From NCBI GenBank assembly GCA_963779685.1, contig CAVZZG010000001.1, positions 411,458 to 475,457 on the forward strand: a stretch of DNA of 64,000 nt, written 5' to 3'. Source of the DNA: an uncultured Actinomycetes bacterium (GTDB taxonomy: Bacteria > Actinomycetota > Thermoleophilia > Gaiellales > F1-60-MAGs149). This document shows positions 2,022 through 34,187 of this stretch, in pieces. The notes beneath the pieces were generated by a model, which saw nothing but the letters and a program-made list of their open reading frames with translations, was not told the DNA's origin and did not search any database. Every line of letters starts with the position of its first letter. The first letter of the stretch is position 1. The translations under genes were made by a program, and so were the position numbers.

Positions 2022-2938
2022 CGAGGATCAAGACCGTCCGGGAGCGGACGAGCGTCCCGAGCCAGCTCGCCGGGATCGTTGCCGTCGTCGTGCCGCCGCT
2101 CGGGCTCGTGGCCGCGGTCTGGCTGCTCTGGAACCGCGGCGTGCGCCCGGTCGACCTCGTGCTGCTCGCGTGCTTCTACGTGGCCTGCGGGCTGGGGATC
2201 ACCGTCGGCTTCCACCGGCTCTTCACGCACAGGAGCTTCGAGACGAGCGCGCCGCTGCGTGCGCTGTGGGCGATTCTCGGGAGCATGGCGATGCAGGGGC
2301 CGGTCACCCAGTGGGTCACCGACCACCGCAAGCATCACGCGCTCTCCGACCGACCGGGCGACCCGCACTCGCCGCACGCCGGGCACGGCGACTCGCTGGC
2401 CGAGCACGTGCTCGGGCTGTGGCATTCGCACGTCGGCTGGCTCTTCGCGACGAAGGGCCTCGAGCGCGGGGTCGAGTACGGACGCGACCTGTACGAGGAC
2501 CGGCTCGTGCGGGCGATCGATCGTCTCTACCTGCTGTGGGTCGCGCTCACGCTCGGGCTTCCGTTTCTCGCGGGATACCTTGCCGGCGGGAGCTGGCAAC
2601 GGGGCCTCGAGGCGCTGGTCTGGGCCGGCCTCGTTCGGATCTTCCTGTTCCAGCACGTGACGTTCTCGATCAACTCGATCTGCCACTTCTTCGGCGAGCA
2701 ACCCTTCCGCACCCGCGACGAGAGCCGCAACGTCCGGCTGCTGGCGATCCCGTCGTTCGGCGAGTCGTGGCACAACGGGCACCATGCGTTCCCGGCGTCT
2801 GCAGTCCACGGCCTCGAGCCCGGCCAGCTCGACATCTCGGCGCTCGTGATCCGAGGCATGGAGAAGATCCGCCTCGCGACCGCCGTCAAGCGCCCCGACG
2901 CACGGCAGGTCGAGCGGCGACGCGTCGTGGCCGAATGA
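2018..2938 (+). CDS. membrane acyl-CoA/acyl-lipid desaturase (His-box, DesA3/stearoyl-CoA desaturase type)
   Basis: In-frame ATG 2018 inside track ORF 1850..2938. Three His boxes (HRLFTH, HRKHH, HNGHH) and hydrophobic hairpins. ATGA overlap 2018-2021. Confidence 0.9.
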   Translation: MTRIKTVRERTSVPSQLAGIVAVVVPPLGLVAAVWLLWNRGVRPVDLVLLACFYVACGLGITVGFHRLFTHRSFETSAPLRALWAILGSMAMQGPVTQWVTDHRKHHALSDRPGDPHSPHAGHGDSLAEHVLGLWHSHVGWLFATKGLERGVEYGRDLYEDRLVRAIDRLYLLWVALTLGLPFLAGYLAGGSWQRGLEALVWAGLVRIFLFQHVTFSINSICHFFGEQPFRTRDESRNVRLLAIPSFGESWHNGHHAFPASAVHGLEPGQLDISALVIRGMEKIRLATAVKRPDARQVERRRVVAE

Positions 2939-4578
2939 CGCCGCCGCCAGAACCCGACCCGCCCGCCGGCGAGCCGTTAGCGCAGGACGAGCGCTCGACT
3001 CCCGCAGCGAAGAACCGCAACCGCTGGCTCGCCCTCATCGCGCTGACCATCGGCGTGGCGATGATCATCGTCGACGCGACGATCGTCAATGTCGCGATTC
3101 CGTCGATCATCCGCGACCTCCACATCGGGATCACCCAGGCCGAGTGGGCGAACTCGATCTACTCGCTGGTGTTCGCCGCGCTCCTGATCAGCGTCGGCCG
3201 CATCGGCGACGTGACGGGGCGCCGTCGCGTGTTCATCTGGGGACTCCTGGTCTTCCTCGCCGCGAGCGTGATCACCGCTCTCGCGCCCTCGGGAACCGTC
3301 CTCCTCGCCGGCCGCTTCCTCCAGGGGGTGGGCGGAGCGCTGATCCTCCCATCGACGCTCTCGATCGTGAACGCGACGTTCCGCGGTCGCGAGCGGGCGA
3401 TCGCCTTCGGGATCTGGGGCTCGGTGATCGGCGGGATGGCGGCGCTCGGCCCGCTCGCGGGCGGCTGGTTCGTCACCAACCTGAGCTGGCGCTGGGCCTT
3501 CTACGTCAATCTCCCGATCGGAGCGCTCGCGCTCGCCGGCGCCTTGGTCTACGTCGCCGAGAGCCGCGATCCGGACGCACGGCCCGGGTTCGATCCACCG
3601 GGCGTCGCGCTGTCGACCGCCGGCTTCCTCGGCGTGGTCTTCGGGCTGATCGAGGGGCAGACCTACGGCTGGTGGACCGCCCAGCGCGACTTCCTCGGCG
3701 TTTCTCCCGGTGGGTTGTCGGTGATCCCGTTCGCGTTCGCGCTCGGCGTGCTCTCGCTCGCGGGTTTCGTCCTCGTCGAGCGGCGGCGTGCGCTCGCGGG
3801 ACGTCCGGTGCTCGTCGACTTCGCGCTCTTCCGGATCCCGACCTTCTGCTACGGCAACGTCGCGGTCCTGATCGTCGGGCTCGGCGAGCTCGGGCTGGTC
3901 TTCGTGATCCCGCTCTTCCTGCAGTCGGTGCTCGGGCTCTCGGCCTTCCACACCGGGCTCGTGCTGACCGCTCTCGCCGGGGGCGCGTTCCTCGCGGGCG
4001 GGCTCGCCGCGCCGCTCACCCGCAAGATCGGGCCCCACCGGGTCGTGCAGCTCGGGCTCGCGATCGAGGTCGTCGGCATCGTCGCCGTCGGCCTCACGTT
4101 CTCCGCCGATCGCCCCGCCTGGCAGTTCTGCCCGCAGCTCTTCGTCTACGGGATCGGCGTCGGGTTCGCGACGGCGCAGCTGACGAGCCTCATCCTCGTC
4201 GACGTGCCCAGCGCCCAGTCCGGCGAGGGATCGGGGATCCAGAGCACGTCGAGGCAGGTCGGCTCAGCGCTCGGGATCGCGATCCTCGGCACCGCGCTCG
4301 CGAGCGGGCTCGCCTCCGGCACCAGCGCTCGCCTCGAAGCAGTCCCGTCGATCCCGCCTCCACAGCGCGCGGCCATCACGGCCGCCGTCGAGCGGAGCGG
4401 CGGAGCGGTTCTGCCCGCCTTCCGCCGCTCGCCACAGCTCCAGCCTGCGGTCGCGCCGGTCGAGGAGGCGTTCGTGGCGAGCGCGCGACGAGCCGCCTTC
4501 ATCGCCGCCGCGTTCGTCCTGGTCGGTCTCGTGGCCGCGTTCAGGCTACGGCCCGGCGGACTGGATGGGCCCGAATAG
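2935..4578 (+). CDS. MFS transporter, DHA2 (EmrB/QacA) subfamily
   Basis: In-frame ATG 2935 inside track ORF 2170..4578. WLALIALTIGVAMIIVDATIVNVAIPSI and GRIGDVTGRRRVF motifs, many TM segments. ATGA overlap 2935-2938. Confidence 0.9.
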   Translation: MTPPPEPDPPAGEPLAQDERSTPAAKNRNRWLALIALTIGVAMIIVDATIVNVAIPSIIRDLHIGITQAEWANSIYSLVFAALLISVGRIGDVTGRRRVFIWGLLVFLAASVITALAPSGTVLLAGRFLQGVGGALILPSTLSIVNATFRGRERAIAFGIWGSVIGGMAALGPLAGGWFVTNLSWRWAFYVNLPIGALALAGALVYVAESRDPDARPGFDPPGVALSTAGFLGVVFGLIEGQTYGWWTAQRDFLGVSPGGLSVIPFAFALGVLSLAGFVLVERRRALAGRPVLVDFALFRIPTFCYGNVAVLIVGLGELGLVFVIPLFLQSVLGLSAFHTGLVLTALAGGAFLAGGLAAPLTRKIGPHRVVQLGLAIEVVGIVAVGLTFSADRPAWQFCPQLFVYGIGVGFATAQLTSLILVDVPSAQSGEGSGIQSTSRQVGSALGIAILGTALASGLASGTSARLEAVPSIPPPQRAAITAAVERSGGAVLPAFRRSPQLQPAVAPVEEAFVASARRAAFIAAAFVLVGLVAAFRLRPGGLDGPE

Positions 4579-19289: not shown

Positions 19290-21712
19290 CCGCGTAGCCG
19301 GACGTCGTCGGGGTCATGGAGCGAGGGCGGGGTCACGGTCGCCCGGCGACGCTCGCCCAGGATCGCGACCTCCAGCACGTCGCCGTCGCGGGCGTGGGCG
19401 ACCGGGAGGTAGGCCAGCGCGATCGACCGCCCGACCGTATGCCCGTAGCCGCCCGACGCGACGTACGCGATCAGCTCGCCGTCTGCGTAGACGGGCTCGT
19501 ACCCATGTGCGTCGGCGTCGGTGTCCTCGATCACGAGCGTCGCGAGCCGGTGCGTCGACCCCGCCGCCACCTCCGCCGCCACCGCGTCGCGGCCGATGAA
19601 CTCGCCCTTGCCGGGTCGTACGAACCTCCCCATGCCGGCCTGCAGGGGCGACCAGTCCGCGGACATGTCCGCACCCCACAGCCGGTAGCCCTTCTCGAGC
19701 CGCAGCGACTCGAGCGCGCGGTAGCCGAAGTCCCGCAGCCCAAGGTCCGCGCCGGCCTCGACGATGGCCTCGTACAGGTGGCGCTGGTACTCGATCGGAT
19801 GGTGCAGCTCGTAGCCGAGTTCGCCGACGTAGGACAGGCGCAGCGCCCGGACCGGGGCCATCGCGCACTCCAGTTCGCGGCTCGTGAAGAACGGGAAGGC
19901 GGCGTTCGAGACGTCGCTCCGGGTGAGGCGTGCGAGGAGCGCTCGCGCGTTGGGGCCGGCCAGCGTCAGCACCCCCGTCGCGGCCGAGACGTCCTCGAGG
20001 TGCACGGACCCGTCGCCGGGGAGGTGGCGGTCCATCCACTCGAGGTCGTGGGTGGCCGTGCCGGCGGCCGAGATCACGAGGAAACCGTCTGCGGCCGTGC
20101 GGGTGACCGTCAGGTCGCACTCGATGCCCCCTCGCGGGTTCAGCATCTGGGTGAGGCGCAGGCCGCCGACGTGATCGGGCAGCACGTTCGCGCAGAGCCC
20201 GTCGAGATACCGTTCCGCGCCCGGGCCCGAGACGGCGAACTTCGCGAAGCTCGTCTGGTCGAGGACGCCGACCGCGTCGCGGACCGCCCGGCATTCGGCG
20301 GCGACGGCGTCGTGCCAGTTGCTCTCCGCCCGGCGGAACGCGACCACGTCCTCCCGCGGCTGGCCCTCTGCCGCGAACCACGCGGGCCGCTCCCAGCCGT
20401 TGCGGACCGCGAAGACGGCGCCTCTCGCAGCGAGCAGGTCGTAGATCGGGTCGGTCTTCAGCGGCCTGCCAGCCGGCCACTGCTCTTCGGGCCGGTGCAC
20501 GTCGTACTCGCGGACGTACACCTCGACCGCCCGCCGGCCCGTGTACGAGACCCCGGCGTAATCGCCGAACCGCCGGACGTCGACCTCCCACATGGTGTCG
20601 CGCGGCTGCCCGTCGACGATCCACTCCGCCATCGCGCGGCCCGCGCCGCCCGACCACACGATGCCGAAGATCGAGAACCCGCAGAGCACGTGGACATCGC
20701 GAAGGCCCGGCACCGGCCCCATGAGGCAACGTCCGTCCGGCGTGTACCCGTCCGCGCCGCACAGCGTCTTCCGGATTCCCACCTCGGCCAGGCGCGGGAT
20801 GCGGGTCGCGGCGGCCTCGAGCGGCTCGATGATGCGGCGCATGTCCGGCTTGATCAGGCGGTTCGCCCACCCGGACGGGATACCGTCGGGCGCCCACGGC
20901 TCGAGGTGCCGTTCGAACGGGCCCACGATCAGCGCGTCGTGGTCCTGCCGCACGTAGAAGCGCGCGGCCGGGTCGCGCACGATGGTCAGCTCATCGGTGC
21001 GGGCGGCAACCTCGGGCAGCGGCTCGGTGAACACGTAGTGGTGGGGGAGCGCGACCAGGGGGATTCGCGCACCCGCCATCCCGAGCACCTCGCGTGACCA
21101 CATGCCGGCGGCGCACACGACGGTCGCGGCGACGACCTCGCCGTCCGGGATGGTCAGCCGCCAGCCGCCGGCCACGCGTTCGAACGAGGCGACCGGGCTG
21201 TGACGGAGGATCCGCGCCCCGCGTGCCGTGGCGCCCCTGGCGTAGGCGCCGGCCAGGCTGGCCGGGTCGATCCAGCCGTCCGTGGGCAGATATGCGGCTC
21301 CCGCGAGGCCGGCGGGATCGAGCAGCGGGAACAGCTCGACGGCGCGCTCGGGCTCGATCACCTCGAACGGCACGCCCGCCACCTCGGCGACGCCGGCCAC
21401 GTGGCGGATCTCGTCGAGGTGGTCGCGGCTCGGCGCCAGGCGGATCGACCCGGTCGGGTGGAAGCCGACCGGCTGTCCGGTGTCGGCTTCGAGGGCGCCG
21501 TACACCTCGAGGCTGTGCCGCAGCGCCCCCATCAGCGTGGCGCTCGTCGAGTACTGGGTGCAGAGCCCGGCCGCGTGCCAGGTCGTACCGCTCGTCAGCT
21601 CGTGCTGTTCGAGCAGGACGGTGTCCGTGCATCCGAGCAGCGCGAGGTGGTAGAGCGTGCTGAGGCCGGCGACGCCGCCTCCGATGACGGCGACCCGTGC
21701 TTCGTGGCGCAT
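19286..21712 (-). CDS. FAD-dependent oxidoreductase fused to GcvT-fold domain (dimethylglycine/sarcosine dehydrogenase family)
   Basis: Track ORF, 808 aa. VAVIGGGVAGLS FAD motif and a C-terminal aminomethyltransferase-fold region (..LRLEKGYRLWG..). Confidence 0.85.
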   Translation of the reverse strand: MRHEARVAVIGGGVAGLSTLYHLALLGCTDTVLLEQHELTSGTTWHAAGLCTQYSTSATLMGALRHSLEVYGALEADTGQPVGFHPTGSIRLAPSRDHLDEIRHVAGVAEVAGVPFEVIEPERAVELFPLLDPAGLAGAAYLPTDGWIDPASLAGAYARGATARGARILRHSPVASFERVAGGWRLTIPDGEVVAATVVCAAGMWSREVLGMAGARIPLVALPHHYVFTEPLPEVAARTDELTIVRDPAARFYVRQDHDALIVGPFERHLEPWAPDGIPSGWANRLIKPDMRRIIEPLEAAATRIPRLAEVGIRKTLCGADGYTPDGRCLMGPVPGLRDVHVLCGFSIFGIVWSGGAGRAMAEWIVDGQPRDTMWEVDVRRFGDYAGVSYTGRRAVEVYVREYDVHRPEEQWPAGRPLKTDPIYDLLAARGAVFAVRNGWERPAWFAAEGQPREDVVAFRRAESNWHDAVAAECRAVRDAVGVLDQTSFAKFAVSGPGAERYLDGLCANVLPDHVGGLRLTQMLNPRGGIECDLTVTRTAADGFLVISAAGTATHDLEWMDRHLPGDGSVHLEDVSAATGVLTLAGPNARALLARLTRSDVSNAAFPFFTSRELECAMAPVRALRLSYVGELGYELHHPIEYQRHLYEAIVEAGADLGLRDFGYRALESLRLEKGYRLWGADMSADWSPLQAGMGRFVRPGKGEFIGRDAVAAEVAAGSTHRLATLVIEDTDADAHGYEPVYADGELIAYVASGGYGHTVGRSIALAYLPVAHARDGDVLEVAILGERRRATVTPPSLHDPDDVRLRG

Positions 21713-21721
21713 CCCGTGACT

Positions 21722-22741
21722 CTACAACGCCGATCCGTGCAGCTCGCAGACCACCGCGTCCAGATCGCCCAGCTCGCCGTCGGCGAAATGCACCGTCGCG
21801 CGTTCCGCGAGTGCGGCCCGTACCACCTCGTCCAGGTGGTCGGCGAGCGCCTCGCCGTCCACGATCACGCGGGTCGCGCGACCGGCCGTGAGCGCCGCCA
21901 GCACCGGCCGCCGGCCGCGGGCGAAACCGGCCGGGCGGGCCCGTGCGGCCTCAATCAGGCGGGCCGCCTCGGCGTGCCGTACTGCCGCCAGCTCGGGCGC
22001 GACATCGATGGCGACGGCGGCTGCCGACCGCCACGGCGGGAGGTGGCGCTCGAGGACGAAGCTGCCGGTGACTGCGCCGGCGAGCTGGCGGGCGTGGCGA
22101 GGGTCGCCGCCCACGAGCACGCCGTGCCAGCCGCGCCGGCGCGCCGTATCGCCGATGGCACGGGCGGCATCCGCCACCTCGCGGCTGCGGTGCGCCTCGA
22201 CGCGGCGCTCGTACTGGTCGCGCTGGGACGAGCTCTCGTAGCTGCGCTGCGGCTGTGCCCGCGCGGGTCCCCGCATCTCGTGCCAGTCCCCGCGGGTCGC
22301 GAGCGTGATCGGCGCGAGCTCGGTGGCCGTGCCGTCCGCGCACTCGACCGTGCGGATCCCCTCCAGCCCGACGTCGATCAGGCCCAGGGCGCGGCCCGCG
22401 TCGACCGCCCGGGCGATGTCGACCAGCTCGGCCGATCCACCGATCGTGATCACGGTCGCCACCCGCGCCGGCAGGGTGAAGTGGAAGCGATCGCCGCCGC
22501 CGATGCAGGCGACGAACCCGTGCGCCAGGCCCCGCTGGCGGTTGTCGGTGATCGCAGCGGCCTCCTCGACCAGGTTCTCGGGGATCGGGAGGTCACGGCG
22601 GTGCCGGTGGAGCACCGTGCGGATCTCATGGGCGCTGGCGTCGTCGGGGGTGGCCAGCACCGTCAGGACGCCGATCGGATCGGTGAGGCCCGCGAGGTGC
22701 GCCAGGAACGGCGCGTCGAGATGTCGGGCGAGGTGAGCCAT
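21722..22741 (-). CDS. eRF1-like (baeRF / Vms1-type) domain protein
   Basis: ATG 22741 inside track ORF 21722..23206. Pattern ..SYESSSQRDQYERRVEAHRSREVAD..GWHGVLVGGDPRH.. resembles actinobacterial eRF1-like proteins. Recognition is from memory only. Confidence 0.45.
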   Translation of the reverse strand: MAHLARHLDAPFLAHLAGLTDPIGVLTVLATPDDASAHEIRTVLHRHRRDLPIPENLVEEAAAITDNRQRGLAHGFVACIGGGDRFHFTLPARVATVITIGGSAELVDIARAVDAGRALGLIDVGLEGIRTVECADGTATELAPITLATRGDWHEMRGPARAQPQRSYESSSQRDQYERRVEAHRSREVADAARAIGDTARRRGWHGVLVGGDPRHARQLAGAVTGSFVLERHLPPWRSAAAVAIDVAPELAAVRHAEAARLIEAARARPAGFARGRRPVLAALTAGRATRVIVDGEALADHLDEVVRAALAERATVHFADGELGDLDAVVCELHGSAL

Positions 22742-22828
22742 GTCTTCATGATCCGGCGCTGCGTCCCACCGGCCATCGGCGCGCGCACCAACTGCGCGTT
22801 GCGGGAAAGCCGCGCTACGCTTGGCGCC

Positions 22829-23239
22829 GTGGCTCCGATCGGCACGCGGCAGGACCCCTGGCTGCTGAAGACCCCGAGCGGCGAGCTCGGAGTTCCATGG
22901 CCTACCGCGACGAGACGCTCGACCCGCCGGCGCTCGTCGTGCGACGTCGGCAAGACCGAGCTGCGCTACCAGCTGCGCTGCATCGACGACCTGCACGCCA
23001 TGCTCGAAGGCGCACGGCGACTGGATGCCGCTCGGCAGCGCCGACGAGCAGAAGCCCGCCGCCGACGGCACGGTCGAGGCGTGGGCGCGCTCGGCCGACA
23101 ACCCGGTCGGCGGCTGGTACGGGCTCAAGAAGGGCCTGCGCGGCCGCTTCGCGAATGTACGTGCCGCCCGTGCTCGAAGCAGCTCGGGCTGGCCGAGGTC
23201 GAGCACAACCCGCGCAACAACCGCATGCGCGCCCTCTGA
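22829..23239 (+). pseudogene. conserved small protein (C-terminus ..NPVGGWYGLKKGLRGRF..LGLAEVEHNPRNNRMRAL) broken by five frame changes
   Basis: Consecutive peptide segments lie in frames 2,1,2,3,1,2: VAPIGTRQDPWLLKTPSGEL / SSMAYRDETLDPPALVV / CDVGKTELRYQLRCIDDLHAML / KAHGDWMPLGSADEQKPAADGTVEAWARSADNPVGGWYGLKKGLRGRFA / MYVPPVLEA / LGLAEVEHNPRNNRMRAL*. Breaks lie near 22889, 22940, 23006, 23154 and 23182. No other strand or frame is credibly coding here. Confidence 0.7.
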
Positions 23240-23248
23240 CGCCGGCCG

Positions 23249-24058
23249 CTACTCGCCGCCCGGCTCCAGCTCCCCGCCCGACGTCGACTCCCCGGTGGGC
23301 TTCGAGGGTCCACCGGATCTGAGGTGGGTGAGCAGGTCGACCGGGATCGGCACGATGACCGTCGAGGTGCGCTCGGACGACATCTCGATCAGGGTCTGGA
23401 AGTAGCGGAGCTGCACGGACACGGGCTGCGCGGCCAGGACCTCGGCAGCCTCGGCCAGCTTGGCGGAGGCCTGGAACTCGCCCTCGGCGCTGATCACCTT
23501 CGCGCGCCGCTCGCGCTCGGCCTCGGCTTGGCGTGCCATGGCGCGCTGCATCGACGACGGGATCTCGACGTCCTTGATCTCGACGACCGACACCTTGATA
23601 CCCCACGGCGCGGTCTGCTCGTCGATGATCCGCTGGAGGATGGCGTTGATCGCGTCGCGCTCGGACAGCAGCTCGTCGAGCGAGTGCTGACCGAGGGTCG
23701 AGCGCAGGGTCGTCTGGGCGATCTGGCTCGTCGCGACGAGGTACTGCGCGACCTCGACCACCGAGGCAGTCGGCTCGACCACCCGGAAGTAGGCCACCGC
23801 GTTCACGCGCACCGGCACGTTGTCCTTGGTGATGACCTCCTGAGGTGGCACGTTCAGCGTGATCGTCCGCAGGTCGACCCGCACCATCCGGTCGACGATC
23901 GGGATCAGGAAGATCAGGCCCGGGCCCTTCACCGGGGTGATGAGACGGCCGAGCCGGAAGACGACCGCGCGCTCGTACTCCCGGAGCACCTTCAGCGCCC
24001 CGATCAGCACGGCTAGAGCGAACGCGACCAGAATGGCGGCGACGACGACGGCGATCAT
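23249..24058 (-). CDS. SPFH/band 7 (stomatin-like) protein
   Basis: Track ORF. N-terminal TM plus ..[45 protein letters not shown]. Confidence 0.9.
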
Positions 24059-25353
24059 ACGGGCTCCTCGGGAGCGGGATGGACGTGGATGAGCAGGCCT
24101 TCGACGCTGTCGACCACGACCTCATGGCCCTCGTCGAGCGGGCCATCGTCGGTGGTCGCCTGCCAGAGCTCGCCGTGCAGGTACACGAGGCCCTCCGGTT
24201 GAAGGCGGGTGCGGACCTCGGCGCGCTGTCCGACCAGCGTCTGGACGCCCGTTGCCGGTGGTGACAGCCGTACGCGTGCGGTCTTCGAGACGACGAACAC
24301 GAAGAAGGTGCCGACGATGGCGCCCGCGCCGATCGCCAGCGGGATCGAGATGGTGGGTGCGTCCCCGCCCGTGGAGAACAGGAGTAACGCTCCCGCGACC
24401 AGGCATATGACGCCGATGGCTCCGATGGCGCCGTGCCCGATGTGCGCCTCGGCCGCGATCATGGCGATGCCCGCGAACGTCAGGGCCAGCCCGGTCCAGG
24501 TGAACGGGATCACCGACAGGCCGAACAGCGCCAGCACCAGCAGGATCCCGCCCGTCACGCCGGGGATGTAGACGCCCGGGTGGGCGACCTCGAACGCGAG
24601 CAGGGCGATGCCCCCCAGCAGCAGCAGGTAGAGGATGTTCGGGTCGATGATCACGTCCAGGATCTGCATGGTCAGCGGCAGCGTGTGCGTCGACACGGTG
24701 GCGCCGGCCGTGTGGAGGACGAGGCCCTTCGGCTTGGTCGTGCGGCCGTCGGCCTGCTGGAGGAGGCTGTCCATGGTCGGCGCGATGATCTCGATGACGC
24801 CGAGCTTCAGTGCCTCGCTGGCCGGCACGTTCGCGGCCTTCCGGACGGCCTGCTCGGCCCAGTCGGCATTGCGGCCGTGTGCCGTCGCGGTGGCCCGGAT
24901 CTGAGCGACCGCATCGTTGAGGATCTTGGTCTTGAGATCGCCCGCCGGGATGTCGCCGCCGCTCGTTACCGGCGTCGAGGAGCCGATGTTCGTCTGCGGC
25001 GACATGGCCGCGAGATCGGTCGCCATCATCACGAAGACACCGGCCGAGGCCGCGCGAGCGCCTTCCGGCGCGACCCAGCCGATCACCGGCACGGGGGAGG
25101 CGAGTTCCGCCTGCGTGATCTCGCGCATCGAGCTGTCGAGGCCCCCCGGCGTATCGATGCGCAGGACGATCGCCGTGTCGCCCGCGTCCTTCGCGGCGTG
25201 GATCTGCTCGACGACGAACTTCGCGGTCACCGGGTCGATCTCCCGGTCGAGCACGATCTCGCGCACCGTTCCCGCCCGCGCCGGAACCGCGCCCGCTGCG
25301 ATCGTCGCCAGCACGGCCAGCGTGAGCAGCAGGAGGTGCCTTGTTCGCGGCAT
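24055..25353 (-). CDS. NfeD family membrane-bound ClpP-class serine protease
   Basis: ATG 25353 inside track ORF 24055..25392. Signal sequence, ..[10 protein letters not shown].. protease domain, TM bundle, C-terminal OB-like domain. ATGA overlap with the SPFH gene. Confidence 0.85.
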
Positions 25354-25399
25354 CGGTCGCGAAGCAGTATAGATTGCGAAATGGCCGTACACTCGGGCC
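25354..25399. promoter_or_regulatory. putative divergent promoter region (NfeD operon / hydrolase-P450 operon)
   Basis: The only locally AT-enriched stretch here (..gcagtatagattgcgaaatggccgtacact..). TANNNT-like hexamers: TACACT 25388-25393 (6 nt before GTG 25400), TAGATT 25370-25375, and TATACT on the minus strand 25371-25366 (12 nt before ATG 25353). Confidence 0.3.
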
Positions 25400-26167
25400 G
25401 TGATCGAGGTCCATCACCGGGAATCGGGGCCTCGCGACGCGCCCGCGATCGTGCTCTCCAACTCGCTCGGCGCGACCCTCGCGATGTGGGACCGGCAGGC
25501 CCCGGAACTCGCCCAGCGCTACCGGGTGGTGCGCTACGACCTGCGTGGCCATGGCGGGTCGCCCGTCCCGGCCGGCCCGTCGACGATCGCCGACCTGGGC
25601 GAGGACCTGCTCGCGCTGCTCGACCGGCTCGACATCGAGCGGGCCGCGCTGGTGGGCGTGTCGATCGGCGGCATGGTGTCGCTCCATGCGGCCGCCGTGG
25701 CGCCCGAGCGGGTGTGGTCGCTCGTGCCCTGCTTCACGGCGGCGTACCTCGGCCCGGCCGAGACCTGGCGCGAGCGGGCCGGCCTCGTCCGCGCCGAGGG
25801 CACCGAGGCCGTGGCGGATGCGGTCATCGCGCGGTGGTTCACGCCCGCCTTCGCAGCCCGCGAGCCCGCCCTGGTGGCCGCCACCCGCGCCGCCATCGCG
25901 GCAACCGACCGGAACGGCTATGCGAGCCTGTGTCACGTCATCGAGACCATGGACCTGCGTGGGTCGCTGGCCGCCATCTCCGCCCCGACCCTCGTGATCG
26001 CCGGCGCTCTCGACCCGTCGATCCCGCCCGAGCATGGCCGCCTGGTCGCCGACGGCATCGCCGGCGCGCGCTTCGCCGTGCTCGAGGGGGCGGCGCATCT
26101 CGGTAACATCGAGTGCGCAGACGCCTTCAACAGGCTGCTCCGTGACCACCTGGAGGCCACCGCGTGA
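25400..26167 (+). CDS. alpha/beta hydrolase, 3-oxoadipate enol-lactonase-like
   Basis: Track ORF (GTG). GVSIGG nucleophile elbow, ..APTLVIAGALDPSIP.., AAHLGNIE. Overall PcaD-like. Confidence 0.75.
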   Translation: MIEVHHRESGPRDAPAIVLSNSLGATLAMWDRQAPELAQRYRVVRYDLRGHGGSPVPAGPSTIADLGEDLLALLDRLDIERAALVGVSIGGMVSLHAAAVAPERVWSLVPCFTAAYLGPAETWRERAGLVRAEGTEAVADAVIARWFTPAFAAREPALVAATRAAIAATDRNGYASLCHVIETMDLRGSLAAISAPTLVIAGALDPSIPPEHGRLVADGIAGARFAVLEGAAHLGNIECADAFNRLLRDHLEATA

Positions 26168-27322
26168 GCGCGACCGAGGACCTCGCCGCCGGCTTCGACC
26201 ACAACGACCACGAGATGCGCCTGAACTGCGCGCGAGGTCTACGGCCGCCTCCGCGAGACCTGTCCGGTGTTCCACAGCGACGTCTGGGGCGGATTCTGGG
26301 TCGCCAGCCGGTACCAGGACGTGTACGAGGTCGGCCGCGATCCCGACCGCTTCGCCTCGGGCCGGGGCGTGATGCTGCCACCCGTCGGCCACGGGCGTCC
26401 CCTGCGGCCGATGGACTCCGACCCGCCGGAGCACGCGGCCTACCGCGAGCTGATGCTCGCACGTTTCGCGCCCGCCGCCGTCGTCGGGATGGAGGACGAT
26501 GTCCGCGCGCTCGCGGCCTCGTTGCTCGACTCGGTGGCCGGCCAGGGCCACGCCGACCTGTACGAGGTGCTGGCCAAGCCGCTGCCGATGCTCGTCATCA
26601 CCCGGCTGCTCGGCATCGAGCGCGACGACGTGTTCTGGGAGTGGACGGACGTGCTCATCTACGGGCGCGTCGACGGCACCGACCCGGCCCGCATCGTCGA
26701 GGTCGCCGACGCCCTCTACGGCTTTCTCGCCGACCAGGTCGAGGACCGCAGGCGCCATCCCGGAGGCGACCTGATCTCGCTGCTGCTGCAGGGCTCGGTC
26801 GGGGAGCGGTCGTTCACGGCCGAGGAGATCCTCGACCTCTGCTTCTTCCTCCTCATCGCCGGGCTCGAGAACACCGCCTTCGGCATTCGCGCGACGCTGC
26901 GGCATCTGGCCGTCCGGCCCGACCACCGGGCCGCCGTCCTCGCCGACCCGGCGCTGGTGCCGAACGTCGTCGAGCAGTCGCTGCGGCTGTACTCGCCCGT
27001 CACGGCGCTCGCCCGCTGGGCGACGCGCGACACCGAGGTCGCGGGCCGGCGGATCCGCGCCGGCGAGCGGGTGCTGCTGCTGTTCGGCTCGGCCAACCGC
27101 GACGGTGCGGTGTTCGCCGACCCCGACGAGTTCCATCTCGATCGGCGCGACGGCCGGCACGTCGCGTTCGGGATCGGACCGCACCGCTGCGTGGGATCGA
27201 ACCTCGCGCGTCTCGAGCTGCGGGTCGCGGTCGAGGAGACCCTGCGGCGCATCCCGGGCTACCGGCTGGCCGGCGAGGATCCCGGCTGGGGCGTGGCCGG
27301 CCCCCTGGAGGTGGTGTGGTGA
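26164..27322 (+). pseudogene. cytochrome P450, frame-broken near N-terminus as assembled
   Basis: GTG 26164 overlaps the previous stop (GTGA). The first 21 codons (VSATEDLAAGFDHNDHEMRLN) are in frame 1. The rest (AREVYGRLRETCPVFHSDVWGGFW...) is in frame 2, which is closed by TGA 26222-26224 and has its first start only at 26267. Heme loop FGIGPHRCVGSNLA, ExxR (EQSLR), I-helix AGLENT. Confidence 0.85.
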
Positions 27323-27513
27323 AGGTCGCCATCGACCGTTCCATGTGCGTCGGCCACGCCCAGTGCTCGGCCATCTGCCCCAGCGTGTTCGGGAGCGATG
27401 AGCTCGGCTACGCCGTGCTCGTGGACGACGGCGATGTCCCTGCCGAGGACGAGGAGTCGGCGCAGCTCGCCGTCGATTCCTGCCCCGAGCAGGCGATCAC
27501 GGTATCTGGCTGA
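27319..27513 (+). CDS. small ferredoxin (CxxHxxC...CP type, 3Fe-4S/4Fe-4S)
   Basis: GTG 27319 overlaps the P450 stop (GTGA). VKVAIDRSMCVGHAQCSAICPSVF...SCPEQAITV, 64 aa. This is the usual P450 partner position. Confidence 0.85.
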   Translation: MKVAIDRSMCVGHAQCSAICPSVFGSDELGYAVLVDDGDVPAEDEESAQLAVDSCPEQAITVSG

Positions 27514-27580
27514 GGCCGCGCCGGTTCGCGAAGGGCGGCCCGGCGCTTGGGAAGCGGTCGGTCGGTACGCTGCCCGGGCC

Positions 27581-28945
27581 ATGCCCTCCGCACCGCTGCG
27601 AGTCGCCGTCGTCGGATCCGGACCGGCCGGTTTCTACGCCGCCGGGCACCTGCTGGCGGGCGGCGCGGAGGTCGACCTCTTCGAGCGCCTGCCGACGCCG
27701 TGGGGGCTCGTCCGGCTCGGCGTCGCGCCCGATCACCCGAACATCAAGTCCGTGTCGCGCGTGTTCGAGAAGATCGCGGCCCGGCCGGGATTCCGCTTCT
27801 TCGGCAACGTCGAGATCGGTCGGCACCTGTCCCGCGACGACCTCATGCGTCACTACCACGCCGTCGTGTGGAGCGTCGGCGCGCCCGACGACCGGCGGAT
27901 GGGCATCCCCGGCGAGGACCTGCGCGGCTCGCTGTCCGCGACGGCCTTCGTGGCCTGGTACAACGGGCACCCCGACTACCGCGACCAGCCGGTCGACCTC
28001 GACGTCGAGCGGGTGGTGGTGGTGGGCAACGGCAACGTCGCGCTCGACTGCGCGCGCATGCTCGCGCTCACCCGCGACGAGCTCGCGCCGACCGATACGG
28101 TCGATCACGCCATCGAGGCGATCGTCGCATCCCGGCTGCGCGAGATCGTCGTGCTGGGGCGGCGCGGGCCGGCGCAGGCCTCGTTCACCAGCCCGGAGGT
28201 GCAGGAGCTGGGCGAGCTGGCGGGAGCCGACGTGCTCGTCGATCCTGCCGATCTGGACCTCGATCCCGTCAGCGAGGCGAGCCTGCACGACGACGGCTCG
28301 GTGATCCGGCGGCGCAACGTCGAGATCCTGCGCGAGTTCGCCACGCGGGCCCGGTCGGGCCGGCCGAGGACCGTGCAGCTCCGCTTCTTCGCGTCGCCGC
28401 TCGAGGTGCGCGGCCATGGCCGGGTCGAGGAGATCCTCGTCGGCCGGAACCGGCTGGAGCCGGGCCCGGACGGCAGCCTCCGCGCCGTTCCGACCGGCGA
28501 GACCGAGGTGGTGCCGTGCGGCCTCGTGCTGCGCAGCGTGGGCTATCGCGGCACCCCGCTGCCGGGCGTGCCGTTCGACCACGGTCACCACGTCATCCCG
28601 AACGATCGCGGCCGCGTGGTCGACGAAGACGGCCGGCCGATTCCGGGCGAGTACTGCGCCGGCTGGATCAAGCGCGGCCCGAGCGGGGTGATCGGCACCA
28701 ACAAGAAGGACGCCACCGAGTCCGGCGACCTGCTGCTCGCCGACGCCGCCGAGGGACGCCTGCCGGCGCCCGCCGATCCCTCGCCGGAGGGGGTCGAGGA
28801 GCTCGTCGCCCAACGCTGCCCGGATGCGATCGAATACACCGGCTGGCTCGCCATCGACGCCCACGAGCGCGGCCTGGGCGAACCCCACGGCAGGCCTCGC
28901 GTGAAGCTCGCGAGCTGGCCCGAACTGCTCCACCACGGCCGGTGA
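27581..28945 (+). CDS. fprA: NADPH:ferredoxin reductase, adrenodoxin-reductase (FprA) type
   Basis: ATG 27581 inside track ORF 27398..28945. VAVVGSGPAGFYAA, VVVVGNGNVALD, CAGWIKRGPSGVIGTNKKDA. Confidence 0.85.
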   Translation: MPSAPLRVAVVGSGPAGFYAAGHLLAGGAEVDLFERLPTPWGLVRLGVAPDHPNIKSVSRVFEKIAARPGFRFFGNVEIGRHLSRDDLMRHYHAVVWSVGAPDDRRMGIPGEDLRGSLSATAFVAWYNGHPDYRDQPVDLDVERVVVVGNGNVALDCARMLALTRDELAPTDTVDHAIEAIVASRLREIVVLGRRGPAQASFTSPEVQELGELAGADVLVDPADLDLDPVSEASLHDDGSVIRRRNVEILREFATRARSGRPRTVQLRFFASPLEVRGHGRVEEILVGRNRLEPGPDGSLRAVPTGETEVVPCGLVLRSVGYRGTPLPGVPFDHGHHVIPNDRGRVVDEDGRPIPGEYCAGWIKRGPSGVIGTNKKDATESGDLLLADAAEGRLPAPADPSPEGVEELVAQRCPDAIEYTGWLAIDAHERGLGEPHGRPRVKLASWPELLHHGR

Positions 28946-28953
28946 GTGGACCG

Positions 28954-29733
28954 ATGCGAACGCCCTCCGTTCCTGTCCATGCCGTGCCCCACGTCGAGGC
29001 CGCGTTCGATGCCGGACCCGGCGCGCGCGCCTCGCTCGGCCTGATCGCACTCGCCACCGACCGGGCCTGCCCCGGTGACGTCGCCGCCTTCCTGCCCGAC
29101 GACCCGGCGGTCGAGGTGTTCACGCAGCGCATCCCGATGTCGCTCAGCGCCAACCCCGAGACGCTCGGCGCGCAGCACGCCCATCTGGCCGAGGCGGCCG
29201 CGAACCTCGTGCCGGGCAGCCGGCTCGACGTCATCGGGTTCGGGTGCACCTCGGCGGGTGCGGCGATCGGCCTCGACCGGGCGGAGGCGCTGATCGGCGA
29301 GGGCCGGCCCGGCGTGCCGGTCACGACGGCCCTCGGCGCAGCCGGTCGCGGCCTGCGCGCCGTCGGCGCCACCCGCATCGCCTTGCTGACGCCCTACGTG
29401 GACGCGGCGCACGCCCTGGTCGAGGACTACCTCGCCGGCCAGGGGTTCGACATGCTCGTGCGCGCCAGCTTCCACCTCGACGGCGATCCGGACATGAACC
29501 GGGTGTCGCCGGCCTCCCTGATCGAGACCGGTCGGGCGCTCGCCGCGGATGCCGGCGTCGACGCGCTGTTCCTCTCGTGCACGGGCATTCGGACGCGGCA
29601 CGTGATCGCACCGCTCGAGCAATTGCTCGGCATGCCCGTCCTGAGCTCGAACCAGGCGCTGGCGTGGGAGATGCTGCGAGTTGCCGGTTACGACGCTCCG
29701 GTGCCCGGACGCGGGATGCTCCTGCTCCTCTAG
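28954..29733 (+). CDS. Asp/Glu/hydantoin racemase superfamily enzyme (maleate isomerase / arylmalonate decarboxylase-like)
   Basis: ATG 28954 inside track ORF 27547..29733. Two Cys half-sites ..[10 protein letters not shown].. and ..[11 protein letters not shown].. in about 260 aa. Confidence 0.7.
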
Positions 29734-29743
29734 ACTCCCCCCG

Positions 29744-30946
29744 GTGAGCTACGAGGACATCTTCTCGGGCGCGCTCGACCGGCTGCGTGCCGAGGGCCGC
29801 TACCGGACGTTCGCCGAGCTCGAGCAGCTGCCCGAGTCCGGGCCCGAGGCGATCTATCACGGTCCGGACGGCGCGGCGCGGGTGACGGTCTGGTGCTCGA
29901 ACGACTACCTCGGCATGTCGCGGCACCCCGTCGTGGTCGGCGCCTCAGAGGCGGCCGCGCGTCGCGGCGCCGGCAGCGGTGGCACGAGGAACATCTCCGG
30001 AACCACCAGCTACCACGTCGCGCTCGAGCGCGAGATCGCCGACTGGCACGGCAAGGACGCCGCGCTCCTGTTCGCCTGCGGCTACCTGGCGAACCTGACG
30101 GCGCTGTCGACGCTGGGGGCCGCGCTGCCCGGCTGCGTGATCCTGTCCGACGCCCTCAATCACAACTCGATGATCGAGGGCATCCGGCGCAGCGCCGCCG
30201 AGGTGCAGATCTTCCGTCACAACGACGTCGAGCACCTCGATCAGCTGCTGGCGGCGCTCGACCCCGGGCGACCGCGGATCGTGGCGTTCGAGAGCGTGTA
30301 CTCCATGGACGGCGACATCGCGCCCGTGGCTCGCATCGTCGAGGTCGCCCGCCGGCACGGCGCGCTCACCTATCTGGACGAGGTGCACGCCGTCGGCATG
30401 TACGGGCCCGGCGGGGCGGGTGTGGCCGTGGCGGTCGGGGTCGCCGATCAGGTGGACGTGATCCAGGGCACGCTCGCCAAGGCGGTCGGCGCCATGGGCG
30501 GCTACGTCGCCGCGTCCGAGACCGTGATCGACCTGATCCGCTCGTACGGCTCGGGATTCATCTTCACGACCTCGCTCTCGCCGGTCGTCGTCGCCGCGGC
30601 GCTGGCAAGCATCCGCCACCTGAGGGTGTCCGATGGCGAGCGCCAGGCGCTGTTCGCGCGCGCCTCGTCGCTGCGCCAGGCGCTGCTCGCGGAGGGCCTT
30701 CCCGTCATGTCGCGGGAGAGTCACATCCTGCCGCTGCTCGTCGGCGACCCCGACCGCTGCCGTGCGGCGAGCGAGCGCCTGCTCGCGGATCACGCCATCT
30801 ACGTGCAGCCGATCAACTACCCGACGGTGCCGCGCGGGAGCGAACGCCTGCGGGTCACGCCCTCGCCCCTGCACGCCGACGCCGACGCCGACCGCCTCGT
30901 CCGGGCGCTCGCCGACGTCCTCGCGCCGCTCGCCGCCGCGTCGTAG
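29744..30946 (+). CDS. 5-aminolevulinate synthase-type alpha-oxoamine synthase
   Basis: GTG 29744 inside track ORF 29681..30946. [69 protein letters not shown] (PLP Lys), [34 protein letters not shown]. This matches ALAS closely, better than KBL or BioF. Confidence 0.85.
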
Positions 30947-30956
30947 TGCTCTACAT

Positions 30957-32775
30957 CTAGACGGGCTCGGCGACCTCGTCGCGCGCGACGAGCGCCGCGT
31001 AGCGGCCGGCAGCGGCGAGCAACTCGGCGTGCGTGCCGCGCTCGACGATGCGGCCCTGGTCGAGCACGACGATCTGGTCGGCGTCGCGGATGGTCGAGAG
31101 GCGATGCGCGATGGCGATCGTCGTGCGTCCCGCCGACAGCTCGTCGAGGGCCTCCTTGACGGCCCGCTCCGTCTCGGCGTCCAGCGCGCTCGTGGCCTCG
31201 TCCAGCACCAGCACCCGTGGGTTCGCGAGCACCGTGCGGGCGATCGCGAGGCGCTGCTTCTCACCGCCCGAGAACCGGTGGCCGCGCTCGCCGACGACGG
31301 TGTCGTAGCCGTCCGGCAGGCGCGCGATCGTGTCGTGCACCTGCGCCGCGCGGCAGGCCGCCTCGATCTCCGCGTCGGTCGCCTCCGGGCAGGCGAAGCG
31401 GAGGTTCTCGCGGACGGAGGCGTGGAAGAGGTAGGTCTCCTGCGACACGACGCCGACCGTGCCGGCCAGCGAGGCGAACGTCAGGTCGCGCACGTCGACC
31501 CCGTCGATCGACACGCTGCCCTCCGTGACGTCGTACAGGCGGGCGATCAGGTAGCCGAGCGTGGTCTTGCCCGAACCGGTCTCGCCGACGATGGCGATGT
31601 GCGCCCCGGCCGGGGCATCGAGGTCGATGTCCTGGAGCGTCGGGCGCTCGCCGCCCTCGTAGGAGAACTGCACGTCGCGGAGCCGGACCTCCCCGCGCAC
31701 GCTGGCCGGGTCGAGCGTCCTCGCACCCTCGCGCTCGGCGATCTCGACCGGCAGGTCGAGGTACTCGAACACGCGGTCGAACAGGGCGAGCGAGGTCTGC
31801 ACGTCGAGACTCACCGAGAGCAGCTGGCCGACCGGGAAGAACAACCGCGTCTGCAGGGTCGTGAACGCGACCAGGGTGCCGATCGAGATCGCGGAATGCC
31901 CGTTCGACGTCGTCCAGCCGGCGAACCAGTAGACCGCTGCGGGCATGATCGCGAAGGTCATCTGGATGGTCGCCATCACCCACCGGCCGGCCATCCGCTG
32001 CTGTACCTCGAGGCCCGCCAGGCGCTCCGATTCGCCCTCGAAGCGGTTGGCCAGCTCGTCGCCGCGAGCGAACGTCTTGCCGAGCAGGATGCCGCTGACG
32101 GACAGCGACTCCGTCACCAGCGCGGACATGTCGGCCATCGTCCGCTGCCGGGTCGTCGTGATCTCCCGACGCTCGGCGCCGACCCGCCGGGTGAGCAGGA
32201 CGAACACCGGCAGCAGGGCGAACGCGAACAGCGCCAGCCGCCAGTCGAGCACGACCATCGCCACCGCGGTGGCGAGCACGGTCGTCACGTTCGAGGCGAT
32301 CGAGGTGGCCGTGGAGGTGACCACGGTCTGGACGCCGCCGATGTCGTTCGAGATGCGCGACTGCACCTCGCCGGTGCGGGTGCGGGTGAAGAAGGCCAGC
32401 GACAGGCGCTGGAGATGGCGGTAGACGGCCGCCCGGAGATCGTGCATCACTCGCTGGCCGACGATGTTCGAGAGGTAGGTCTGGGCCACGCCCAGCACCC
32501 CGCCGATGACCGCGATCGCGATCATCCCCGCGACGTCGATGTTGAGGCGGGTCATGTTCCTGGGTCGGGATCGCGACGTCGAGCACGTCCCGCAGCAGGA
32601 ACGGCGAGATCATGCTGATCAGGGCGGCCAGCACGATCAACCCCAGCACCAGGGCGAGTCGCAACCGGTAGGCCCGGAACAGCCCGACCACCCGGCGCAG
32701 GTTCTGGCGGCGCACGGTGCGGTCGGCCGGGCGCTCGGGCCGCTCGGGCGGGTTGAAGGTGCCGTGCCTGGACAT
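30957..32775 (-). pseudogene. ABC exporter, fused permease/ATPase (MsbA/MdlB type), frame-broken as assembled
   Basis: The N-terminus and TM1 (MSRHGTF..FRAYRLRLALVLGLIVLAALISMISPFLLRDVLDVAIPTQE) are in the frame starting at ATG 32775. The remainder (MTRLNIDVAGMIAIAV... Walker A GETGSGKTT, FSGGEKQR, VLVLDEAT) is track ORF 30957..32555. The frames differ by one base near 32556-32562. Confidence 0.85.
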
Positions 32776-32804
32776 GACCGGAGCGTATCGGCTACGTTTG
32801 CCGC

Positions 32805-34187
32805 ACGGACGCCGCGGATGTCACCGGCACGAGCGCGACCGCCCTGGCGGCCGCCATCCGGAAGCGCGAGCTTTCCGCCGTCGAGGTGCTGTAAGCCCAT
32901 GTCGCGCGGATCGCGCAGGTCAATCCGGCGCTGAACGCGATCGTGGCCGAGCGCTTCGGGCAGGCCCGGATCGAGGCCGCCGCGGCCGACGCGGCGGTTG
33001 CCGAGGGCGGGGATCTGCCGCCGCTGCTCGGCGTGCCGGTGACGATCAAGGAGGCGATCGCCTGCCAGGGGATGCCGTGGACGTCGGGGTCGCGGCTCCT
33101 CGCCGGCCAGGTCGCGGACCACGATGCGCCGGCGGTCGCCGGACTGCGCCGCGCCGGCGCGATCGTCCTCGGGGTCACGAACACCCCCGAGTTCTGCTGC
33201 TACTACGACACCGACAACCTGGTCTACGGCCGGACGTGCAACCCGCACGATGCGGCCCGCACACCGGGCGGCTCGTCGGGCGGCGAGTCCGCCGCCATCA
33301 GCGCCGGCCTCTCGCCCCTCGGCCTCGGCTCGGATCTCGGCAGCTCCGTTCGGCAGCCGGCAGCCTGGACGGGCATCTTCGGCCTCAAGCCGAGCGCCGG
33401 GCTGGTGTCGCTGCGCGGGCACCGACTGAGCTCGCCGCCCTCGTTCACGCGGTTCGGGTCGATCGGGCCGATGGCCCGGACGGCCGATGACCTCGCCGTC
33501 GCCCTGCGCGCCATCGCCGTGCGCCCGTACTTCGGTCCGACAGCCGAGCGATTCCCGATCGCCGTCTACGAGGATGATGGCCTGCAGCCCGTCGCGGCGA
33601 GCCTGCGTGCTGCGGTACGGCGCGCGGCGGATGCGCTGGCCGACGCCGGCCACGACCCCGCCGACGCGGCGCCGCCGCACGCGGGCGACGTCCGCCGCAT
33701 CTTCGACATCATGCTCCTGACGGAGGGCGCCGTCGCGTTCGCGCCGCAGTGGGCCGGTCGTGGGCACGAGATGTCGCGGTACGGCGCCGGCTTCGCCTCG
33801 GCCCTCGCCGGCTACGAGCCCGATCTCGGCGCGTACCTCGCCGCAGGCATGGAACTGGCCGGAATCGAGGCGGCCGTCGACGCCTTCTTCGAGCGCTATC
33901 CGATTGCCATCTGCCCGGTCGTCCCCGTCACCGCGCCGATCGCGGCCGAAGGGATCACGACCATCGACGGACGACCGGCGAACCCCGGCGGCAAGATGAC
34001 GCTGGCCACGTTCCCGAACGCGGTCGGTCTGCCCGCCGCGAGCGTCCCGGCCGGCCGGGACGCCGACGGCCTGCCGTTGTCGGTGCAGGTGATCGGCCGC
34101 CGTGATCACGACGGCGACGTCATCGCCGTCGCGCGCGTGCTCGAGGCCGCCCTTGGCGGGTGGGTCGAGCCTGCTCGGGCCTGCTAG
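32805..34187 (+). pseudogene. amidase (amidase-signature family), in-frame TAA and no canonical start
   Basis: Frame 3 reads (T)DAADVTGTSATALAAAIRKRELSAVEVL-TAA(32892-32894)-AHVARIAQVNPALNAIVAERFG.., then GVPVTIKEAI, GGSSGGESAA, GSDLGSSVRQPA (Ser-cisSer-Lys). Frame 3 is open only from 32778 and has no ATG/GTG/TTG before the TAA; 32805 is an ACG. The track ORF starts at GTG 32943. Confidence 0.8.

Follow-up and report, generated by a model that had tools for sequence, protein, structure and literature searches.

The window, that is, the whole stretch of 64,000 nucleotides that we analyzed (G000:C1:411458-475457, 72% GC), belongs to a host genome of 4.26 Mb (G000) that is assembled in 4 contigs and is 94% complete. 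At positions 22829 to 23239 of its forward strand lies a gene of the DUF6855 family (PF21619), which has a GTG start and a TGA stop and an underlying length of about 134-135 codons, and which carries six surplus single bases as deposited. No single uninterrupted frame covers the deposited gene, which is spread over seven segments in three frames. An earlier note, made from the letters of the window, had joined peptide segments from this place into one protein and had matched it to a widespread family of small bacterial proteins. When we translated the three forward frames from 22700 to 23300, all of the segments listed in that note were found, and the joined 135-aa protein matched positions 3-132 of the 132-position Pfam profile PF21619 with 222.3 bits (E 1.9e-66). 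This score exceeds the gathering cut-off of 27 bits with full-length coverage of the profile, and the central 49-aa segment gave 92 bits by itself. The segments do belong to one family, as the note had it. Intact relatives scored 213-232 bits, and the joined protein, which falls inside this range, has a family signal undiminished compared with theirs.

DUF6855 is an abundant family of unknown function whose proteins are about 135 aa long. When the best 8000 candidates were scored, at least 7999 homologues were found at E <= 1e-20, and the closest intact proteins among the matches listed were 87-89% identical. The gene is present in one copy in G000, and a full-length, single-frame copy was found in 14 of 30 related genomes. 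No NCBIfam model matched the joined protein, a literature search found nothing on DUF6855, and a sequence search of the PDB gave no relative of the family. The AlphaFold model of an intact homologue (P0004, mdbfae73f8489; pLDDT 85, pTM 0.83) is confident and shows an alpha/beta fold made up of four N-terminal strands, three helices and a hairpin at the C-terminus. A Foldseek search of the PDB with this model gave no significant match, the best having E = 1, and the model suggests that DUF6855 may have a fold without a solved relative.

We compared the window with L018, a JGI metagenome contig of the same species, which is 96.3% identical to positions 20087-33240 of the window over 13,170 bp, with 448 mismatches. 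The gene order is the same in both: baeRF_family10, DUF6855, Band_7, NfeD, hydrolase, P450, ferredoxin, reductase, racemase, aminotransferase and ABC exporter. The DUF6855 orthologue of L018, at 2640-3152, is in one open frame. Its protein, P0003, is among the closest intact homologues, and it matches the window even in the upstream reading outside the gene. Divergent from the DUF6855 gene, on the reverse strand at 21722 to 22741, the list of open reading frames holds an intact eRF1-like gene of baeRF_family10, whose L018 orthologue matches PF18854 and is 95% identical in protein sequence. The baeRF and Band_7 neighbors are common to L018 only and were not found next to DUF6855 in other genera. 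We considered the neighborhood as a clue to the function of DUF6855 and rejected it, as it is conserved within the species only.

The extra bases at the DUF6855 locus

The sites at which the frame breaks were mapped by aligning the DNA with orthologues from other genera and, using BLASTN, with L018. Both alignments gave six separate +1 insertions in the DUF6855 gene, all described here on the forward strand, and the frame path across the gene runs 2, 0, 1, 2, 0, 1, 2. The first extra base is at 22882 (frame 2 to 0), where the window has AGCGG[C]GAGCTCG, with the extra base in brackets, and L018 has GGG AGC TCG; it could equally be placed 1 nt further on (GGC[G] instead of GG[C]G). The second, at 22897 (frame 0 to 1), is in TTCC[A]TGGCC, against TTC CTG GCC in L018 and CAG in other genera. 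Between these two lies the short segment SSEF, which takes the third frame. The third (frame 1 to 2) is a net gain of one base within a multi-base difference at 22940 to 22945, where the window has GTCGTGCGACGTCGGC and L018 has GTCGCGATCGTCGGC. The fourth, at 23005 (frame 2 to 0), is in ATGCT[C]GAAGGCG, against CTG AAG in L018 and CTC in other relatives, and the fifth, at 23156 (frame 0 to 1), is in GCGAA[T]GTACGTG, against AAC TAC in L018 and ATG TAC in other relatives.

The sixth extra base (frame 1 to 2) lies at 23175 to 23181, in GTGCT[C]GAAGCAGCTCGGG, and was placed by BLAST at 23175, counting the G of GTGCTCGAAG as 23170. Here GTGCTCGAAGCAGCTCGGG in the window equals the first half of one allele followed by the second half of another, the two meeting in the common word GAAG, whose offset between the alleles is one base. 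Judged from its letters, the site reads as the start of a 'GTG CTC GAA G..' allele joined to the end of a 'GTG ATG AAG CAG CTC' allele.

The earlier note had the frame breaks right and their number too low: it gave five, and it described a junction near 22889 as having either two surplus bases or one too few. That junction consists of two +1 events, near 22882 and 22897, that are 15 nt apart, which brings the single-base insertions to six. Because the net gain is six bases, the first and last segments are in the same frame, and that frame stays open. Indeed, frame 2 is open without a break from 21200 to 23239 (679 codons), and an open off-frame of this kind is unremarkable at 72% GC.

All eight coding indels between the window and L018 are one surplus base in the window, with zero deletions; six of them fall in the DUF6855 gene, and the P450 and ABC exporter genes have one each. 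L018 has each of these three genes in a single frame. The extra base in the cytochrome P450 gene, at 26233 on the forward strand (TGCGCG[C]GAGG), splits FDHNDHEM.. from ..EVYGRLRETCPVFHS; the P450 assignment comes from a Pfam match of the L018 orthologue, and the codon-usage model described below placed a frame switch at 26227. In the ABC exporter gene, which lies on the reverse strand, the extra base at 32557 (CATG[T]TCCTGG, or ACCCAGGA[A]CATGACC on the gene strand), splits ..DVAIPTQ from MTRLNIDVAGM..; the model placed a switch at 32559, and the peptide keeps its sense across the frames. The non-coding indels, at 23246, 27515-27530 and 30943, are all intergenic.

Coding indels relative to L018 numbered six in 294 bp at DUF6855 vs. 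two in the remaining 12.8 kb or so of the alignment, which agrees with the earlier claim that the local indel density is far above that of the rest of the window. Genome-wide, this density is not exceptional, as G000 holds about 89 similar clusters. The density of mismatches with L018 in the DUF6855 stretch, 23 per 400 bp, is like that of the neighboring stretches, and dN/dS of the gene relative to L018 is 0.36 (26 differences). The earlier note had named a single open frame in an independent assembly as the sign of an assembly artefact, and L018 shows essentially that, although, as a 96% relative and a different strain, it documents intact alleles in the species and not intactness in the strain of the window.

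Frame switches across the genome

Frame switches were called over the whole genome using a codon-usage HMM trained on 1042 long ORFs with high GC3 and a seven-state Viterbi path (non-coding and six frames). Among same-strand switches without a nearby stop in the upstream frame, the HMM counted 389 '+1' vs. 63 '-1' in 4.26 Mb, counts that contain some false positives at gene starts. Ordinary gene boundaries were biased the other way, with 306 '+1' vs. 1109 '-1'. At a reduced penalty the counts were 1030 '+1' vs. 379 '-1', and many of the '-1' calls made at this low penalty are two '+1' events close together, as at the DUF6855 locus, while some are false calls at gene starts. All three calls that the HMM made at the high penalty within the 13 kb covered by L018 proved to be true extra bases.

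The switches are strongly clustered: 117 gaps between them were shorter than 500 bp, vs. about 18 by chance, and 89 clusters had at least three switches, with a maximum of 18 in 1.6 kb and often in unbroken '+1' runs. The patches measure 0.3-1.7 kb and have 1-2% surplus bases. They fall in unrelated genes, including an aminotransferase with an aldehyde dehydrogenase, alanine racemase, glucose-6-phosphate dehydrogenase (G6PD), MFS, CO-dehydrogenase subunits and a transposase; C1:644977-646640, C1:784656-786083, C1:335512-336313 and C3:2448550-2449724 are examples, each with mostly '+1' switches. When other clusters were translated along the Viterbi path, real proteins were obtained whose Pfam matches span the breaks: Ala_racemase_N (profile 1-220 of 220), G6PD_N plus G6PD_C (the latter at 2-294 of 296 with 272 bits), Aminotran_3 (178 bits), MFS_1 (100 bits) and Ro60 vWA plus TROVE (200 bits for Ro60 vWA). 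The DUF6855 locus is therefore a modest member of a genome-wide class, and this one-sided recurrence in unrelated genes throughout the genome is what an artefact would be expected to give.

Two further places in the window, both on the forward strand, have the look of such breaks. Near 43132, at the C-terminus of a glycogen branching enzyme (GlgB-like) and beyond the coverage of L018, there is a +1 change between ..WRELLNTD and GVYGGSGLGNAG. Near 6716, a probable +1 break leads from a membrane domain (..LFLGAF) to a sulfatase-like domain (SVAHIAW..KPTIVWVVMDE), and neither a stop nor an obvious start codon is present at the junction. Separately, the 6-mer AGGAAC/GTTCCT was 4.5-fold enriched within 25 nt of the '+1' switches called by the HMM (45 of 389 vs. 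10 expected). It may mark a systematic error context, or RBS-like gene starts that the HMM scored wrongly; the enrichment is unconnected with CCWGG.

Sister genomes in the family were also considered. Four of them (G003, G004, G010 and G014) have 3-30 contigs and are 61-67% complete, compared with 4 contigs and 94% for G000, suggesting that they are the same kind of long-read assembly rich in indels; contig count and completeness fit long-read genomes that are still rich in indel errors. One of them, G010, has a DUF6855 copy with an extra C near the N-terminus, at about 1501-1530 of L009 (G010:C9). In another public assembly, a DUF6855 protein of 185 aa (P0001) has an internal, partly out-of-frame duplication (..LHAMLARTGIGCRWAVPTSRSRRLDPPALVVQVG..), which is probably one more product of faulty assembly rather than a real variant.

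Relatives' reads and the origin of the extra bases

Among the public runs searched, none was found to hold the strain of the window. The largest share of sampled words in any run was 0.11 for the stretch 22300-23900 and 0.17 for the 10 kb next to it; of a 101-base query spanning sites 1-3, at most 2 of 7 sampled words (0.29) occurred in one run; and reads of the exact strain over the six sites were not seen. Illumina contigs of relatives, from sediment and soil metagenomes, were one base shorter than the window at four of the six sites, namely 22943, 23005-23007, 23152/23157 and 23175/23181. One base was left out at 22943 (site 3) in an X4 contig and at 23005-23007 (site 4) in contigs of X1-X5. 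At site 5, where one base was left out at 23152/23157, the loose ends were GCATGTACGTGCCG. At a fifth place the alignments ended at 22899, including that of a unitig from the X3 relative. A 151-nt Illumina unitig of X3, a 96.4% relative, runs in frame over site 6 as CCGCCCGTGAT|GAAGCAG..., that is, GTG ATG AAG CAG CTC GGG, and at that place further unitigs of X3 have ..CTCGAAG|AGCTC and ..CTCGAAGC|GCTC (CTC GAA GAG CTC and CTC GAA GCG CTC). A second cluster, in the alanine racemase gene (L019), gave the same picture: Illumina contigs of 92-95% relatives had one base left out six times and a base put in zero times. An artefact is expected to be absent from independent assemblies and short reads of the same or related organisms, and all eight surplus bases are absent from L018.

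The same pattern of one extra base in dozens of unrelated genes, together with its absence from a nearly identical relative, argues for assembly error. Taken together, we put at about 0.9 the probability that the six extra bases are an artefact of assembly or consensus and no biological feature, and that the DUF6855 gene is intact and ordinary, an estimate drawn from the deposited genome and from contigs and reads of relatives. Frameshifting, recoding or pseudogenisation is unnecessary as an explanation.

We propose that the extra bases were introduced during the assembly or polishing of this long, highly contiguous metagenome-derived genome, in which reads of two slightly differing sequences would have been fused into one consensus. 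The second sequence could have come from a strain living alongside, or reads from other members of the community could have been cross-mapped on a very conserved gene. At positions where the two sequences differ, the consensus would retain the bases of both and gain one base each time, and the outcome would be patches of +1 errors, 300-1700 bp long, in dozens of places across the genome. The insertions seem to fall on polymorphic positions. Two alleles standing side by side can be read at four of the six DUF6855 sites (GG[C][G], C[A][T]G, CT[C][G] and the GAAG-shifted chimera of site 6) and also at 26233 (GC[G][C]) and, on the gene strand, at 32557 (GA[A][C]), a kind of reading that chance easily yields. 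Both alleles of site 6 were seen in reads of relatives, and the second allele was never observed in the strain of the window. In public metagenomes, foreign reads of at least 93% likeness stack on 22944-23239 and none do so in the flanks, showing that the DUF6855 gene is prone to cross-mapping. At the L019 cluster, the depth of foreign reads had no local peak over the cluster. Cross-mapping as the only cause, which fits the DUF6855 locus and is unsupported at L019, was thus rejected.

A variant of the artefact reading needs no second strain, and would have the locus be a generic patch of uncorrected long-read errors left by low coverage or missing polishing. Clusters of 0.3-1.7 kb with 1-2% surplus bases are in keeping with such a patch, and long-read assemblies and metagenome-derived genomes classically retain indel frameshifts as residual errors (PMC9262707; bioRxiv 10.1101/2021.08.23.457338). 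However, homopolymers account for most of the errors that remain in long-read sequence (PMC9262707, PMC8812927), whereas only one of the eight sites extends a homopolymer; three of the eight insertions, at sites 3, 5 and 6, are part of differences from L018 that span several bases, and site 6 joins two alleles in a clean chimera. Judged by these sites, a merge of two sequences would fit better than the usual error in homopolymer length, and we rank it, by inference, above a plain unpolished patch of low coverage, which we regard as possible but doubtful.

Among the biological readings, a real and very recent pseudogene would require six true +1 insertions here and hundreds elsewhere, all made by insertion-biased mutation. 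The deposited sequence does contain the insertions, and no read of the exact strain contradicts them. On the other hand, at least 390 insertion-only events would be needed, clustered in patches and affecting core genes, alanine racemase and G6PD among them, and the same-species contig is intact at all eight sites. Bacterial pseudogene decay is normally deletion-biased and leaves lesions of mixed types. Instead of the mixed lesions, dN/dS near 1 and eroded score of neutral decay, we found insertions only, a dN/dS of 0.36 and a family score equal to that of intact relatives. The earlier remark that many indels with little substitution damage are unlike slow neutral pseudogenisation therefore holds, and we consider a recent pseudogene very unlikely. 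It is likewise very unlikely that the extra bases are real, whether through rapid, patchy, insertion-only (+1) mutagenesis at hundreds of sites that include core genes or through tolerance by novel decoding in this uncultured high-GC actinobacterium. If the insertions were true, they would point to a novel insertion-biased mutational process, and nothing supports that.

Two further readings would have the deposited sequence itself decoded. Programmed +1 frameshifting or four-base codons at six sites would account for shifts that share one direction, and sites 4 and 6 have CTCGAAG in common. But this word is limited to those two sites, no motif is common to all eight, and the place is read in a single frame in L018, in the listed homologues and in the 14 full-length orthologues of related genomes, so that neither the conserved shift site nor the common motif of a programmed or quadruplet system was found. 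Moreover, six such events within 300 nt would destroy the yield, and identical shifts occur at hundreds of unrelated places, which makes recoding extremely improbable. Compensated frameshifts that yield a genuine new protein of 137 aa, with two out-of-frame stretches, have in their favor that frame 2 is open through the whole gene and reaches 58 bits against PF21619. Open off-frames are, however, common at 72% GC, and this one extends over 679 codons. Such a protein would also lose the invariant core NPVGGWYGLKKGLRGRF, and codon usage tracks the ancestral frames and not frame 2; a protein of this kind is equally hard to credit.

With an assembly or consensus artefact as the preferred reading, the main value of the locus is as a warning that G000, and apparently several sister genomes too, hold hundreds of +1 errors in patches. 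Calls of 'pseudogene', 'frameshift', 'split gene' or 'recoding' in G000 are suspect pending inspection of the reads, and the whole assembly is in need of re-polishing. A gene caller would yield here a protein of at least 137 aa with a scrambled conserved core, which would pollute protein databases.

Comparison with known error and decay patterns

The gene in the window has all the blocks of the Pfam family DUF6855, namely PW.LKTP, VGKTELRY, DDLHAML, GDW.PLG.ADEQKP, NPVGGWYGLKKGLRGRF and PRNNRMRA. It differs from the orthologues of the family, which are in a single frame, in that the deposited sequence is readable only through six frame changes. With bacterial pseudogenes in neutral decay it shares a frame interrupted by indels. 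Unlike them, it is free of deletions and of premature-stop substitutions, and its family score is not visibly lower. The species also has an intact allele, and core genes throughout the genome show this pattern too.

The indel errors of long-read and hybrid assemblies, which IDEEL and proovframe target (PMC9262707, bioRxiv 10.1101/2021.08.23.457338), likewise split conserved genes and leave the sense of the peptide intact. They too occur genome-wide, are missing from independent short-read data and accompany a contiguous assembly with reduced marker completeness. Unlike the usual errors of this kind, those in the window are nearly all insertions, lie mostly outside homopolymers and form dense patches, and these three features would point to the merging of divergent reads rather than to errors in homopolymer length.
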